Shown: piece after piece, positions 31-19,419 of the stretch
Layout of the letters: each line of letters opens with the position of its first letter
How positions within the stretch are numbered: the first letter of the stretch is position 1
Virus record (IMG/VR): IMGVR_UViG_3300034685_000230
Span: 25,472-89,471 of that record
DNA from: a virus
Length of the DNA: 64,000 nt
Direction: 5' to 3' (one strand)
Notes under the pieces: model-generated
What the model was told of the DNA's origin: nothing
The model's input: only the letters and a program-made list of their open reading frames with translations
The model's database searches: none
Translations under genes and position numbers: made by a program

Positions 31-267
31 ATGGATCTAAACGAGTTTATGAAGAAGTCCCTGAGTCTAGTTGACCCAGTCGACCTTGAGAGGGAGTTCA
101 GCGACACGGAGATGAAGTACGCTTCTAAGATCGCTAAAAAGGACATGGAGATAAGCGACTTAGACCGGAAGATAGCTAGCGTAAATAGAAGAACAAGCGA
201 CATAAAAGCAAACATTAACACGTTAAAAAGTAACTTAAAATTAATAAGCGACGCTTTAGAAGACTAA
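31..267 (+). CDS. small coiled-coil hypothetical protein (head module)
   Basis: 78-aa ORF with GAGG RBS, directly upstream of the scaffold gene. Confidence 0.6.
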   Translation: MDLNEFMKKSLSLVDPVDLEREFSDTEMKYASKIAKKDMEISDLDRKIASVNRRTSDIKANINTLKSNLKLISDALED

Positions 268-1504: not shown

Positions 1505-4500
1505 ATGGACAGAAAAGACTACACGGCTCTCCTGTCAGAGAGAGTCTGGCCCAGGGTTGAGAGACAGCTTTTGGGTGGAATCGCTGACAGGGGGCTTCAG
1601 AGAAACTTGAAAACTGTTCTCGCTAACACGAGAAACGCGCTTTTGGCTGACACGTCAATGCAGAACATGGTATACCTCAGTGTGGGGTCATTTTAGCGAG
1701 AGCTAAAATAGCAAATCGGGTGAATTGCTGGGACTCTTTAGAGCCTCTAGTGCTACAGCGTAGTCGGTAACGACAAGCGCGAAAGCTCTAAAAAACTTAG
1801 AGGATTAGGGAATCAGCAGCCGAGCAGCCAGTACACTGGTTGAAGGTCCAGAGACTACCGGAGAGATGCTCTTAGTTCTTAAGAGCGAGTTCTCTTAATA
1901 ACCGGCTAGAGCGCCCGACCCTTAGTTATAAAGCTAAGGTGAAGATATAGTCCATCCCACAGCGAAAGCTGCGGACAAGATGCCCGAAAATTGTACTACC
2001 GTTAGTTAGACGTCTCAACGTAGGGACCGCTGTAGGGTAACCTACAGTTGCAAATTCGGTGAATTGCTGGGAGCCTTTAGAGCCCTCGGTGCTACAGCGT
2101 AGCTGGCAACGGCAGGCGCGAACGCTCTAAAAAACCGTAGGGATTAGGTAATCAGCAGCCAAGCTCCCGAAAGCGCAAGATAGTAGGGAGAAGGTTCAGA
2201 GACTAGAGGTTGAGCCAGCGCAGGCAATAACACCTCCTCGAGCGCCGAATAACTAAAGCAGTATAGCTTTAGTTAATGATATAGTCCACTCTAGGGTGAA
2301 AGCCTTAGGTAGAGTGCTTTCCAAAACTGATTGCGAATCAGATTATCTCGGTTCAGCCGCTCAACGGACCAACGGGTTATTAATCTAGCTCGTTTAAAAT
2401 CGGGTGAATTGCTGGGAGTTCCTAAAGCTCTTAGTACTACAGAGTAGCCGGAAACGGCAAGCTCGAAAGTTTGAAAAACTAAGAGATGCAACAATGGATA
2501 ACCAGCAGCCAAGCTCCTGAAGGTACATTAAGAGTATGGAGAAGGTTCAGAGACTAGAGGTTGAGCTAGTACAAGCAATAACACCTCCTAGAGCGCCCGA
2601 CAAGTATTGAGTACCTTGACAATTAAATAATACTATAGATTATATAATAATTAATATAAAAAATATTAATATATTATGGGACAGGTGCTGATCACACTTG
2701 ATAAATTTAACCCTCATTTATCTTACCATAATATATTCAATAAAAAGAGGGTTAATTATGATTCAATGTCCAATATGTAAAAAATATTTTAAGCATATTA
2801 ATAACATGCATTTAAAAAAACATAATTTAACTACTGAACAATTTAAATCATTATATCCTAATTATAATACATGTTCTAAAGAATTTAGTGAAAAACGATC
2901 GGCTGCTAATAAAATACAAATGTTAAAAATTCATAAAAAAAATCCAAAAGAAAGATATGTTAATGTTGGTATTGGTCGAAAAAAAGCTTGGGATAATTGT
3001 TCAGAAGAAAGACGAAAAGAGATAGGGTTAAAAGCTACTGAATGTTGGAGAAAATATGATTTAAATGAAGAAAATAAACGAAAAAAATATAAAAAAGTTT
3101 CTAAATCTCTTAAAAAATATTATAAAAATTTAGATCCAAAAGAAAAAGAAAAAATATTGAAAAATAGTTTATTTAAAATTAGAAAACATGGTGGAGCTAA
3201 AATAGAAACTAATATTAACGGAAAAATAATTAAATTTCGATCAATACCAGAAATTTGGATAGCAGAGTTTTTAGAACAAAGTGGTTTTAGTTGGGAATAT
3301 GAAACTTTAAAAATTGATTATTTAGACAAAAATAATAATATGCATATATATATTCCTGATTTTTATATAAAAGATTATAATTTAGTTTTAGAATTTAAAG
3401 GTAAAAATTTTCTTGAAGAAGATATTGAAATATATAAAAAATACTATACAGAAAAAGCCGGATTTAATTATATTTTATTAATGTATCAAGAAAAATATTT
3501 ATTATTAAAAGAATTAAAAAAGATTTTTAATCTATAGTATTATTTAATTATTAGGTACTCAATACTTGAAGATATAGTCCGTTCCGTAGTGAAAGCTACG
3601 GAGTAAAACGTGGATTCGGTTCCTTGACGCATTTGTTGAACACATTAATCCAGCTACTGGCAACGTAAACATCTACCCCTGGTCTCAGGGTGACAGCACG
3701 TACTCTACACCGCAGAATGATTTAACGGTTGAAATTTCAGCTGATGGTACTGACACAAACTATACTGGAGTACTAAAAGACAGCGATAATAATATACTGG
3801 TACCGTCGGAGGGAACGCTCTTTGTGGAGATTGAAAGTTCCTCCGGTACGTGGACGAAGATAGCCGAGGCTGACAGGAGTGGAGTGCTTCACTCTCTGAG
3901 TTCCGCCTATAAAGTTATAGGTGTCGTTGACCCTAAAACACAAGAGTTTGTCGTTAACGTTACAGACTCAGCCGGCACCGTAGTCGGAAAAGCGCTTCGC
4001 TTTGCCTTTAAGGAAGACATTCAGAAGAACATCCCGTTCGGCGACGGTAAGACCTACAACACGATGCGGTTTGAGATCACCAAGATCGCCGTCGAGGCTA
4101 AGACCCGTAAGCTGGGTGCCACGTACAGCTTCGAGCTCATGGAAGACTACAAGAACGAGTTCGGTGAGAACTTCGAGGACAAGATGGTCGACTACCTAAC
4201 CACGACTATTCTGACGGAGGTCGACAGTGAGGTAATCGACACGCTGTTCAGTAAGGCTACCGTAAGCGGTTCTTGGGACGCCACGATGCCGATGACGTGG
4301 ACTCGCGGTATCAACCAGTGGTACGAGACGGTGCTGCCGAAGATAAACAAGCTGAGCAACTACATCTACCAGGCAACCCACGTCTCCGGAGCAACGTTCC
4401 TGGTCTGCAGCCCCGTTACGGCTACCATCTTCCAGAGCCTGATGCAGTTCAGCGGTAACGGTACGCCGACCGACCAGATGAACGTCGGTACCGTCAACAT

Positions 4501-8778: not shown

Positions 8779-9162
8779 TCAGTGGTAGTAGATCGGTGTG
8801 TTCGGGTAACTTACGATAACCCTATATAGTTTAATCTTCCCACCGTCTGGAAGCTCAGAAGCTTCTTCCGAAAGCTCTCCGCCGCAGTACTGCACGACTA
8901 CAGCCCTGTCTCCCACACTTAACTCTACAGTCTCACTACTACAGACTACACCGATGATACTAGCCAACCCCCTGTGCCTAACGTAGCTCTTGTATCCCGA
9001 CCGAACGTACATGTCCATAACGCTCTTAACGTTACCGCGGTCTAAGTTAAAGTAGTCCGTTATGTCGGCAACGTATACGTCGCAGGGAAAAGCGCTGTCC
9101 CTCAGCATGTCTAAGCTAAGCGTGTCGAGAATGTACTCTTCACTCATAAAAACCCCCCTCAC
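8779..9162 (-). CDS. DUF1874 / STIV B116 / AcrIII-1 ring-nuclease family homolog (likely start 9147)
   Basis: YILDTLSLDML, SYVRH, LSVGDRAVVVQY, LSE...LPDG pattern matches the DUF1874 layout (Y.xNAFS.xML, SxIGH, LxxGD..VxQ, RLxEG). Confidence 0.65.
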   Translation of the reverse strand: MRGVFMSEEYILDTLSLDMLRDSAFPCDVYVADITDYFNLDRGNVKSVMDMYVRSGYKSYVRHRGLASIIGVVCSSETVELSVGDRAVVVQYCGGELSEEASELPDGGKIKLYRVIVSYPNTPIYYH

Positions 9163-9623
9163 TGGATAATCTTAACCCTCCACCCCTTAGTCTCGGCATC
9201 GTACCACCAGAGTCTAACACTTCTTAAGTAGACTCGAAGCAAGCTGTAGCATATGCTACACGGGTGTGACGACAAAAGCCTGCGCGTTCCCCTTAAGACA
9301 ACTACGTCTGTGACACCGTCGGTTAACTCTTTTCTTAGCAGTTTGATCACGAGGTCTGCTTCGGCGTGAATTGACATGCACTTTAGATCGTGGTAAGTTT
9401 CCTTAAGAAAAGGATGTGTCTTCAGCTTGTTTTCACCGTACTCTACGAGTTTTGAACCGTCGAGAGCTACAGCTACGCAGCGAAGGCTTGAGTCAAAGCG
9501 TCGCGTGTTCTTTAAGTTGTGTTCTTTAGACATTGTGGCAATCTCGGGTAAGATAGAAGGGAGAGCTCCCTTAAATCTTTTCCCTACTTTAACGTAGCTT
9601 GAGTTTAACCCAACACTTTTCAT
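9159..9623 (-). CDS. zinc-dependent cytidine-deaminase-superfamily protein
   Basis: HAE and PCxxC motifs (SIHAEAD; SHPCSIC). Confidence 0.8.
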   Translation of the reverse strand: MKSVGLNSSYVKVGKRFKGALPSILPEIATMSKEHNLKNTRRFDSSLRCVAVALDGSKLVEYGENKLKTHPFLKETYHDLKCMSIHAEADLVIKLLRKELTDGVTDVVVLRGTRRLLSSHPCSICYSLLRVYLRSVRLWWYDAETKGWRVKIIQ

Positions 9624-9665
9624 ACCTTACTCCATCTCACTTTAACTCTATAAGTTAATTAAATT

Positions 9666-9848
9666 GTGAACTACCCCCACCTATAGAGGTGGTGGCTTCG
9701 TGGTCAATGCTCCCATCGGAGCAAGATTACCCACGCTCAAAGGGCTGTTCCTTCCCCAGCTTTACCAATTATACAGTATTAGGAAAGAATTGTCAAGCGA
9801 CATTCATCACCCACTTATAGAAGTGGGCGACTTCTGTCGTTAATTAGG
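9666..9848 (-). mobile_element. non-autonomous IS200/IS605 derivative: left end, promoter, TnpB omega-RNA-like right end, no ORF
   Basis: Two related subterminal hairpins (ccacct-atag-aggtgg and cccactt-atag-aagtggg); minus strand ends ...GGGGGTAGTTCAC; left boundary approximate. Confidence 0.8.
9768..9796 (-). promoter_or_regulatory. consensus sigma70 promoter inside the mini-element
   Basis: TTGACA-17 nt-TATAAT on the minus strand. Confidence 0.85.
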
Positions 9849-9966
9849 TTAAAATACTACGGTATTTTCTACGCCACTGCCTGTTAAATAAATAAGGGGA
9901 GTTTGTAGCTCCCCTTTGAGTTCATCCACTAACAGATGCAACTCCCTCCCTCGCAAAAACTGTTTC

Positions 9967-10479
9967 TTACCCCTGCAGCTGCTCTTGGCAGAACAGCTTT
10001 ATCATAACAAAGGAGTGTATGTAAGACCTAACTAGCTCCCCAATCTCTTCTAAGTTTGACAAAGACAATGGTAGCTTAAAACTAATTTCCCTACCGTCGG
10101 CTTCTGTAGAGTTAAACCAAAATGTTGCAAACTTAGGCTTTGATATATCTTTATCATCGGTAAAGTACGACAGAGTAACTTTCTTATTGTACTTTTCGCT
10201 GTTTCTATACAGCTCTACAATGCTAGCAACATTCTTAGACTTGATAAACTCTAGAATATTTAAGCAGTCTTGAAACGTTAGCGAGACAACTATTTGCGAA
10301 GCGTAGTCAAATATCTTAGTTCCCTTAGGTATCTGCCCGGGTTTAATACCGTCGGGTAGCTTACCAGGTGTGTACGACGGTGCCGCTACTAACGCTAAGT
10401 TACCAGCCTTGTTAATCTTAAACTGCAGCTTCGCGTACTTTGGAAACACCATTTCATGAACATCAACACTGTACTTCAA
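9967..10479 (-). CDS. hypothetical protein
   Basis: 170-aa ORF with GGAGG RBS. Confidence 0.6.
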   Translation of the reverse strand: MKYSVDVHEMVFPKYAKLQFKINKAGNLALVAAPSYTPGKLPDGIKPGQIPKGTKIFDYASQIVVSLTFQDCLNILEFIKSKNVASIVELYRNSEKYNKKVTLSYFTDDKDISKPKFATFWFNSTEADGREISFKLPLSLSNLEEIGELVRSYIHSFVMIKLFCQEQLQG

Positions 10480-10566
10480 ACCTTACTACCTCCCTTACGT
10501 TTTACGGAGTACTCTCCGGTGTTTTACTGCTATAGTTATAACTTTTAAAGCTTTAAAAACCTTACG

Positions 10567-11631
10567 TCACACTACATTATCGTATATCAGAATGTTCTTG
10601 TTCAAGCGACTCTTGTACACAGCTAGTACTCTTAAACCACGGTAACCGAGCTTCTTAGAGTTTCGGGAAGCGTCGTTTCTTATTAGAAAAGCTACGTCGT
10701 CGTGGTCGTCTACATCGTCTAGACTGGTGATCACTTTTGTTACAGGTATCTTAAACCAACCCTCATCGTCAACGCTAACGGTAGTGTCTAAGTCAAAACT
10801 CTTGACGACAACCGCACCGTTCGGTAGTATGTCACTACCGAACACAACGTCTCTCTTCTCCTCTTCGGTGGGTAAAAAAGCAACGTTCGGTTTTAAACGG
10901 TACACACCCTTGTCAGTCAGCTCGAGTTCTACTACACCCTTCTCTACAAGCTCGTCTACAACTCTTCTAGCCTTAGCCCCCATGTAGTCATCGGCGGACT
11001 CCCAAGTTTCAGCATTGTCCTTCTTAAGCGATACAGGGTAGTCTAAGTTTCCCTGCAGTACTAAGTCCGCCTTTCGCCTGTTCTTTGTATCCGTTCCGGT
11101 CAGAACGCAGTTTTTAACGCCAACACAGCTAAACGTTTTATTCTTACCGACAAACCTTACGTTAACGGGCCCGTTAGCACACAGCTCGTTTATCTTATCC
11201 GCTAGAATCTTTTCGTTTAACACCCCGGCGCTGTGTTCTTTGTTCGGTTTGGCGACAAGCCTTATGTTGTTGTCTAGCTTAACGTAGCCTACCGACGAGA
11301 CACCGCTCGGGGTGTCAATGTACACGCCGTCTAACTCGTCAGCTAGAAACTTTAGGAGCTTAACCCTGTTTTCATCGGTCTTTATATGAATTAACCTACT
11401 GTTCTTAACTACTACGCTCCCAACGTTTAAAGCTTTTAGTTTCTCCGCTACTTCAAGCACTTCTGGGTTAAAACTCTTCTCAGCTAGCAGTAAGTTTTTC
11501 ACCCTTTTAAACAACTCGTCTTTGTCTAACATGATGGGGGTGTGTGGTACCCTAGCTATAAAGCTACCACTCTTTTTCTTTTTCTTCTTACCCTTACTAA
11601 TGTCGTACTTTCGCTCTACCGGCTTAGCCAT
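10567..11631 (-). CDS. putative PD-(D/E)xK nuclease-fold protein
   Basis: RKADLVL...PVSLKK motif; ATG at 11631 with GGAGG RBS overlapping the upstream gene end. Confidence 0.5.
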   Translation of the reverse strand: MAKPVERKYDISKGKKKKKKSGSFIARVPHTPIMLDKDELFKRVKNLLLAEKSFNPEVLEVAEKLKALNVGSVVVKNSRLIHIKTDENRVKLLKFLADELDGVYIDTPSGVSSVGYVKLDNNIRLVAKPNKEHSAGVLNEKILADKINELCANGPVNVRFVGKNKTFSCVGVKNCVLTGTDTKNRRKADLVLQGNLDYPVSLKKDNAETWESADDYMGAKARRVVDELVEKGVVELELTDKGVYRLKPNVAFLPTEEEKRDVVFGSDILPNGAVVVKSFDLDTTVSVDDEGWFKIPVTKVITSLDDVDDHDDVAFLIRNDASRNSKKLGYRGLRVLAVYKSRLNKNILIYDNVV

Positions 11632-19259: not shown

Positions 19260-19419
19260 CATTCAGACTAAATGCTTGCAAAATATAAATTAATAATATA
19301 GAAATACTGAGTGTATCAGAGTACCTGTGGAACACAGGGAATTTACGCCTGTGGAGACTTCGGAAGTCTGTAGTCGCTGAAGCAGGAAGACTACAACTTT
19401 TAAGTTGTAGTTAGTTCAC
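19260..19419 (+). mobile_element. IS200/IS605 right-end remnant / TnpB omega-RNA-like scaffold
   Basis: GGAATTTACGCCTGTGGAG...GAAGCAGGAAG, terminal hairpin gactacaactt-tt-aagttgtagtt, ends TAGTTCAC; upstream codons RLNACKI resemble a decayed TnpB DxNAAxNI motif. Confidence 0.75.

Follow-up and report, generated by a model that had tools for sequence, protein, structure and literature searches.

Can a transposon remnant that encodes no protein act as a gene for a guide RNA? The question is raised by a short segment of a phage intergenic region lying in a window of 64,000 nucleotides, which corresponds to bases 25472-89471 of an 89,471-bp IMG/VR virus record rated as complete by CheckV. A previous sequence-only reading had described this segment as an IS605-type mini-element of about 185 bp, devoid of open reading frames and equipped with matching hairpins and a perfect promoter. 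According to our analysis, the mini-element is present, lacks a protein gene and measures 183 bp, with the following organization (window coordinates):

9666 to 9848, minus strand: whole non-autonomous IS200/IS605 element (PATE), 183 bp, assigned by identity to its parent at both ends
9849 to 9853, minus strand: TTTAA target or transposon-adjacent motif, directly 5' of the left end, read from the sequence
9768 to 9848, minus strand: left end, 81 nt, identical to that of viral contig L024; the hairpin recognised by TnpA lies within it at 9810-9827
9768 to 9771, minus strand: deletion junction with TAAT microhomology, placed at the overlap of the 5' and 3' identity runs

The subterminal hairpins of the left end (CCCACTT-CTAT-AAGTGGG, 9810-9827) and of the right end (9673-9696) have a 17-nt core in common with 88% identity, and terminal inverted repeats are absent. 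Folded as single-stranded DNA, the left-end hairpin reaches -10.3 kcal/mol (z = -5.3), and the z value of the right-end hairpin is -3.1. The right end reads ...GTAGTTCAC, with its terminus at 9666. No meaningful open reading frame is found in the 183 bp, where the only frames, of 43 and 47 amino acids, both lie on the opposite strand. The element occurs once in the phage genome. An 8-bp repeat, GTTAATTA, was considered as a target-site duplication and ruled out, since one of its copies belongs to the left end itself, where it is conserved as CCTAATTAAC in L013, L024, L039 and L143, while the other belongs to the flank.

A tnpB-bearing element sharing these ends, whose existence the sequence-only reading had presumed, was found in two places. 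The full-length parent is a 1,690-bp element in the viral contig L024 (L024:5676-7365), in which TTTAA is followed by a left end with the same promoter, tnpA, tnpB, a non-coding tail and the right end; the same parent, with an identical right end, also occurs in the Tissierellaceae MAG L075. The parent tnpA (L024:5776-6189) encodes 137 amino acids (Y1_Tnp, E = 5.7e-46) and tnpB (L024:6192-7262) encodes 356 amino acids in which the OrfB_IS605, TNB and HTH domains are all found, and the TnpB is a close homologue of ISDra2 TnpB (structures 8bf8/8ex9/8h1j, E = 6e-95). The mini-element consists of 81 nt from the start and 106 nt from the end of the parent, both 100% identical to L024 and overlapping by the 4 nt TAAT, so that left end and right end account for all 183 bp; the 5' identity run becomes 86 nt when TTTAA is included. 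This resemblance is far above chance, because both halves are 100% identical to a tnpA-tnpB element and because a 20-mer of its scaffold recurs at many loci. Judged by its sequence, the unit can be classed with certainty as a PATE, an internal-deletion derivative of an ISDra2-like IS200/IS605 element in which a microhomology deletion took out tnpA and tnpB exactly. The junction TAAT is both the end of the left-end -10 box and part of the parent tnpB stop region ATGTAAT (ATG-TAA-T), and the promoter of the mini-element is therefore the parent's own tnpA-tnpB promoter. The stretch between the promoter and the right end had been taken for sequence resembling the 3' part of tnpB; it is instead not coding and represents the part of the parent past the tnpB stop, with the junction in the TAAT of that stop.

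The promoter itself lies across the junction:

9768 to 9796, minus strand: sigma-70 consensus promoter, with -35 TTGACA at 9791-9796, a 17-nt spacer and -10 TATAAT at 9768-9773, matching the consensus at 12/12 positions

The perfect promoter reported earlier is thus present as described, and in L024 and L131 tnpA is preceded by an identical sequence. Transcription is expected to start at 9761/9762, 6-7 nt past the -10 box and 4-5 nt before stem 1 of the guide-RNA scaffold described below, which places the predicted start 96-97 nt upstream of the right end, close to the earlier estimate of about 95 nt. It is the deletion that brings the parent's left-end promoter to about 5 nt upstream of the scaffold. 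No convincing -35 of an internal omegaRNA promoter was seen by eye in the full-length copies. An independent lineage, L018/L033, carries TTGATA-17-TATAAT at an equal distance from stem 1. A promoter matching at least 9 of 12 positions between the left-end hairpin and stem 1 is found in only 12 of 31 distinct mini-elements, and self-promotion is therefore a trait of some lineages, neither general nor clearly selected.

What this promoter would transcribe is a structured RNA with these predicted parts:

9666 to 9757, minus strand: 92-nt omegaRNA core scaffold, assigned by covariation and by mapping onto the ISDra2 core
9754 to 9757 with 9741 to 9744, minus strand: stem 1
9747 to 9750 with 9668 to 9671, minus strand: pseudoknot of GAAC, in the loop of stem 1, with GUUC at -6 to -3
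9731 to 9735 with 9699 to 9703, minus strand: stem 2
9718 to 9723 with 9708 to 9713, minus strand: stem 3, in which all 6 pairs covary
9673 to 9696, minus strand: stem 4, identical with the right-end hairpin

When 24 full-length copies were aligned, the sequence past the tnpB stop was found to fold into conserved helices; in these copies the scaffold begins around the stop codon and ends at TAGTTCAC, and the mini-element keeps this part intact. Across 75 distinct core sequences, 98.9% of cells are paired in the proposed structure, versus 35-55% with slid partners, and 168 cells show double changes; the observed covariation score was reached by 0 of 500 shuffles. Compensatory double changes affect each of the six stem 3 pairs, as well as a single pair in stem 4. 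The GAAC/GUUC pseudoknot is pairable in 99.7% of cells and almost invariant (two single changes that preserve a wobble pair, one break); since its pairs hardly vary, covariation cannot prove it, and its position agrees with the ISDra2 structure (PMC10097598). A long-range pairing proposed by RNAalifold, between the last 6 nt and a stretch of tnpB coding sequence, was rejected because the partner is missing from all mini-elements; it is replaced here by the local pseudoknot, which fits the ISDra2 structure. A covariance model built from our own family alignment, the kind of check suggested for the omegaRNA, gave the scaffold a score of 118 bits. An Rfam scan of 9000-10500 returned no family inside the element at E values up to 10. 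Since the 92 nt matches the layout of the ISDra2 core minus stem 3b, in a mapping that relies on positions published in PMC10097598 and not on a direct omegaRNA sequence alignment, the retained segment is, by this mapping and by covariation, the complete TnpB omegaRNA core and nothing more.

The family to which the mini-element belongs is widespread. The scaffold 20-mer was located at 37 viral and 77 bacterial loci, the latter including three Caloramator genomes with many copies each, digester Tissierellia MAGs, Thermotalea and Fervidobacterium. Thermophilic Clostridia and Tissierellia, and also other phage contigs, are rich in full-length copies. Among cultured phages, blastn yielded partial matches only: the left end adjoins tnpA/OrfB in Clostridium phage c-st, and the right end directly follows TnpB in Fusobacterium phage phiKSUM. 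The TTTAA noted just outside the left end (9853..9849) is a family trait: of 28 distinct insertion sites, 26 have it at this position and 2 have ATTAA. The exact junction of the mini-element was found in two metagenome contigs, namely, L142, whose variant is 92.7% identical, and L143, whose copy is 100% identical over 188 bp, has other flanks and again sits at a TTTAA site. From this identical copy at a different TTTAA site it follows that the 183-bp unit has transposed. Mini-elements of the family range from 152 to 224 bp and are in many cases independent, with at least 8 junction (deletion) classes, and all of them retain at least 96 nt of the right-end side, that is, the entire RNA core, which also holds for those found by patterns of the right-end hairpin only or of the left end only. 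The bias toward core retention is modest: by a rough estimate, it would arise by chance with a probability of about 0.1 for 8 events.

Several variants of the family organization were encountered along the way. A same-family mini-element at L016:~1-430 (IMGVR_UViG_3300010327_000840) carries as cargo a tRNA-Thr(TGT) gene, identified by ARAGORN at L016:122-197; on one side of it lie the left-end promoter and a short remnant of the tnpB 3' part, on the other the omegaRNA scaffold. In Rhodothermus phage RM378 (L002:3007-3103; NC_004735 ~128214-128310), a copy of the right-end scaffold, without a left end, lies directly past the stop of a sigma-factor gene and is annotated as the 27-amino-acid hypothetical protein Rm378p143. 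The Enterococcus phages EF1/EF5 (L003:~2490-3060) harbor, within an unannotated gap, a protein-less element of about 560 bp with the same left end preceded by TTTAA, a TAGTTCAC right end and a longer, different interior. At L134:~1230-1476 the right-end scaffold is joined directly to the 3' end of an ORF with a GIY-YIG-like C terminus (...KYYIKKFN), and this fusion may be a recombinant of two mobile elements. In L011, L028:5686-5803 and L035, the left end is present but the scaffold breaks off after its first ~35 nt (through GAGCGTGGGTAAT), the rest being replaced by a ribosome-binding site and an unrelated ORF, an arrangement that may represent a cargo-carrying or rearranged variant.

In the phage, the mini-element is bordered by the following features:

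9646 to 9665, minus strand: predicted guide, the 20-nt 3' flank of the right end, AAUUUAAUUAACUUAUAGAG, assigned by position only
9159 to 9623, minus strand: downstream phage ORF, 154 amino acids, no family match, into which the promoter of the element would read
9894 to 9916, minus strand: hairpin resembling a terminator, belonging to the upstream gene and also kept in the related phages L123, L124 and L125

In IS605 TnpB systems the guide is taken from the DNA directly past the right end (PMC10055086, PMC10097598), and the flank-derived guide quoted in the sequence-only reading, AATTTAATTAACTTATAGAG, stands at 9665..9646 as quoted. The hairpin at 9894-9916 would insulate the element from upstream transcription.

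We consider it the best explanation, with a probability of roughly 0.6, that the element is a trans-mobilised PATE making an omegaRNA whose guide targets the element's own empty site and which acts only with a TnpB from another element. The deletion between two TAAT tetranucleotides removed tnpA and tnpB and fused the left-end promoter to the tail past the tnpB stop, which carries the omegaRNA scaffold, and the resulting unit has inserted 3' of a TTTAA in the phage intergenic region. A transcript starting near 9761/9762 would comprise a scaffold of about 96 nt and then the flank-derived guide AAUUUAAUUAACUUAUAGAG, and would presumably continue into the next phage gene. Cognate TnpB would be supplied by a full-length copy in the host chromosome or in a co-infecting phage, its presence in the same cell being an assumption, and the omegaRNA would direct it against the element-free allele, in which TTTAA is joined to the guide sequence. 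TnpA acting in trans would move the element. Meers et al. 2023 (PMC10055086) described PATEs as often encoding omegaRNAs that need TnpB in trans and proposed the same role for them, and the idea of a trans-acting PATE with its omegaRNA is thus already in the literature; the present element is a clean and compact example of it, not a new system. Homing of this kind would correspond to the "transposon non-restorative homing" between co-infecting phages discussed in a 2026 review (PMC13565253).

The element-free allele that such homing would attack was sought among relatives and in databases, as had been suggested, and none was found. For both flanking genes, relatives reach only 54-80% identity, with diverged intergenic regions; exact-pattern scans of IMG/VR gave no match to either the predicted empty site or the right flank, and the DNA run X1 contained no joint across the element. 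Altogether, 14 probable-DNA runs contain half or more of the words sampled from this stretch, and six RNA runs contain small parts of it. In RNA contigs from two studies, cover is heavy over 9666-9775 and almost absent from the unique flanks; because a DNA run displays the same repeat excess, and the family is a high-copy repeat, this cover reflects the whole family and not this locus. The ratio of scaffold to left-end depth is about 8-fold higher in RNA than in DNA contigs, which, coming from different samples, is at most a hint, and the metatranscriptome data, consisting of contigs, cannot show RNA starts, ends or levels.

The alternative that fares best is compatible with this explanation and places the emphasis on the genes downstream. 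The element would be an exapted mobile promoter whose sigma-70 promoter drives the genes at 9623..9159 and beyond, the omegaRNA part serving as a structured 5' leader; we regard this as possible, though somewhat short of an even chance. The layout of the locus is suggestive, in that the element sits between the upstream terminator (9916..9894) and the ribosome-binding site and ATG (9623) of the next gene, with no terminator after its right end, and in that its promoter is the sole good sigma-70-like match on the minus strand in 9000-10600. Moreover, a native TTTACA-16/17-TATAAT promoter (11/12) occupies the same position in the related phages L123 and L125, while the reconstructed empty site of the window reaches only 8/12 (TTAACA-17-TACCGT), its -35 being homologous to that of the relatives and its -10 degraded. 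However, consensus scans are no proof of function, as the phage might rely on a sigma factor or promoter type of its own; the promoter homology is loose, the flanking protein of the relatives being only 54-80% identical; and the identical copy at an unrelated site indicates that the promoter-scaffold unit spreads as a transposon and not because of this gene. A 127-amino-acid ORF of the operon downstream of the element (window 8779-9162, minus strand) has no match in Pfam (E up to 0.1) or PHROGs (E up to 0.001). The arrangement shows the potential of such elements to bring strong promoters into phage intergenic regions.

Another alternative, which we judge rather unlikely, is that the element is an inert hitch-hiker, a recent neutral insertion of a non-autonomous element from an IS-rich host, in which any RNA made would be inconsequential and no cognate TnpB would be met. 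Neither TnpA nor TnpB was detected in the phage by six-frame Pfam searches or by tblastn with the parent proteins, the element is single-copy, and hosts such as Caloramator, with dozens of copies, make insertions into phage DNA expected. The related phages L120 (~1500-1800) and L121 (1-110) carry a different IS605-type TnpB element, with the right end ...GGGAGAGGTTCAAT, in the same terminator-promoter intergenic region, which for this reason looks like a hot spot for the transposon family. The 19 of 31 mini-elements that have no promoter also fit a neutral view. On the other hand, the 100% identity to the parent and to the second copy indicates recent activity in a community that also holds full-length, TnpB-coding copies, including some in phage contigs, and the complete RNA core is kept in every mini-element. 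In heterologous assays, moreover, TnpB is reportedly active with an omegaRNA from a separate transcription unit (work of Karvelis et al. from 2021).

The same phage contains three further modules resembling a right end or omegaRNA, at 19322-19419 of the window (plus strand) and, in the genome record G000, at ~9143-9210 (minus strand) and 62-126 (plus strand; L144:62-126). These modules terminate in TAGTTCAC or TAGTTGAC and have no adjacent TnpB, and no left end was spotted near the one module checked. The family-built model matches the modules at window 19322-19419 (E = 1.5e-4) and at L144:62-126 (E = 4.6e-5), and the one near G000 9210 resembles the 19.4-kb module, with compensatory differences in the hairpin. 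It is conceivable, albeit improbable, that a few omegaRNA modules without a protein gene form a set in this phage and borrow the host's abundant TnpB as a nuclease, each of them so homing into, or excluding, element-free co-infecting phages. By the same speculative reckoning, the set would consist of the self-promoted element at 9666-9848 and the modules at window 19322-19419, genome 62-126 and genome ~9210. If this were true, the modules would be homing elements consisting of RNA only, a guide-RNA equivalent of the free-standing homing endonuclease genes. The suggestion that the phage-made scaffold is a decoy or sponge soaking up host TnpB for self-protection found no support beyond a strong promoter and a TnpB-binding type of scaffold in a genome without TnpB, and is very improbable, since the guides of host TnpB are set by host insertion flanks, so that a match to the phage is not to be expected, the element is a transposon copy that has undergone no modification, is also present elsewhere and hence has nothing phage-specific about it, and no precedent was found in the literature.

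Returning to the trans-mobilised PATE with a self-targeting omegaRNA, its points of interest are the exact and minimal promoter-scaffold fusion, the phage location and the further protein-less scaffold-like modules in the same phage. The element would represent a minimal natural guide-RNA gene, composed of a consensus promoter, a 96-nt scaffold with the content of an engineered trimmed ISDra2 omegaRNA and a flank-derived guide, in a unit that still transposes. It marks the smallest RNA core kept in nature by this TnpB clade and gives TTTAA as the target motif for an ISDra2-like TnpB from thermophilic anaerobes. It also provides a concrete test case for two questions, namely, whether PATE-borne omegaRNAs act in trans and whether TnpB homing takes place between co-infecting phages. 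The existing picture of IS605 biology is left unchanged by it.

Among known systems, the closest are the PATEs described for ISGst of Geobacillus stearothermophilus (Meers et al. 2023, PMC10055086) and for the IStron ends of Clostridioides difficile (10.1101/2023.11.20.567912), which likewise consist of the left and right ends of an autonomous element, have no ORF and are mobilised in trans. The present copy differs in residing in a phage genome and in a deletion exact to the tnpB stop, which sets the native promoter about 5 nt from stem 1 and thereby makes a minimal self-promoted omegaRNA gene. Compared with MITEs, it is similarly a short, non-coding, trans-mobilised IS deletion derivative able to donate promoters, but it has neither terminal inverted repeats nor a target-site duplication, relying instead on subterminal hairpins and single-strand "peel-and-paste" transposition. 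Free-standing phage homing endonuclease genes (marker exclusion; PMC13565253, Table 1) resemble it in that the element-free allele of a co-infecting phage is predicted to be cut, with gene conversion to follow; in contrast, the mini-element is the RNA specificity module only, and its nuclease would be borrowed. The ISDra2 omegaRNA core of Deinococcus radiodurans (PMC10097598) comprises stem 1, whose loop carries a pseudoknot strand, a pseudoknot at -5 to -3 together with -6G and -2A, stem 2, stem 3a with its 3' strand at -48 to -42, the dispensable 22-nt stem 3b, and stem 4. The mini-element has the same order of stem 1 with the pseudoknot strand in its loop, pseudoknot and stems 2, 3 and 4; it reads G-U-U-C-A where ISDra2 has G-U-N-C-A at -6 to -2, and the 3' strand of its stem 3 lies at -48 to -43, at the same distance from the end. 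It departs from ISDra2 in its target motif (TTTAA versus TTGAT), in encoding no protein in cis and in a scaffold of 92 nt versus 116 nt, a length near that left when the 22 nt of stem 3b are subtracted; stem 3b is absent from it and stem 1 is shorter, and for these last reasons its scaffold is a natural analogue of the engineered Trim2 RNA.
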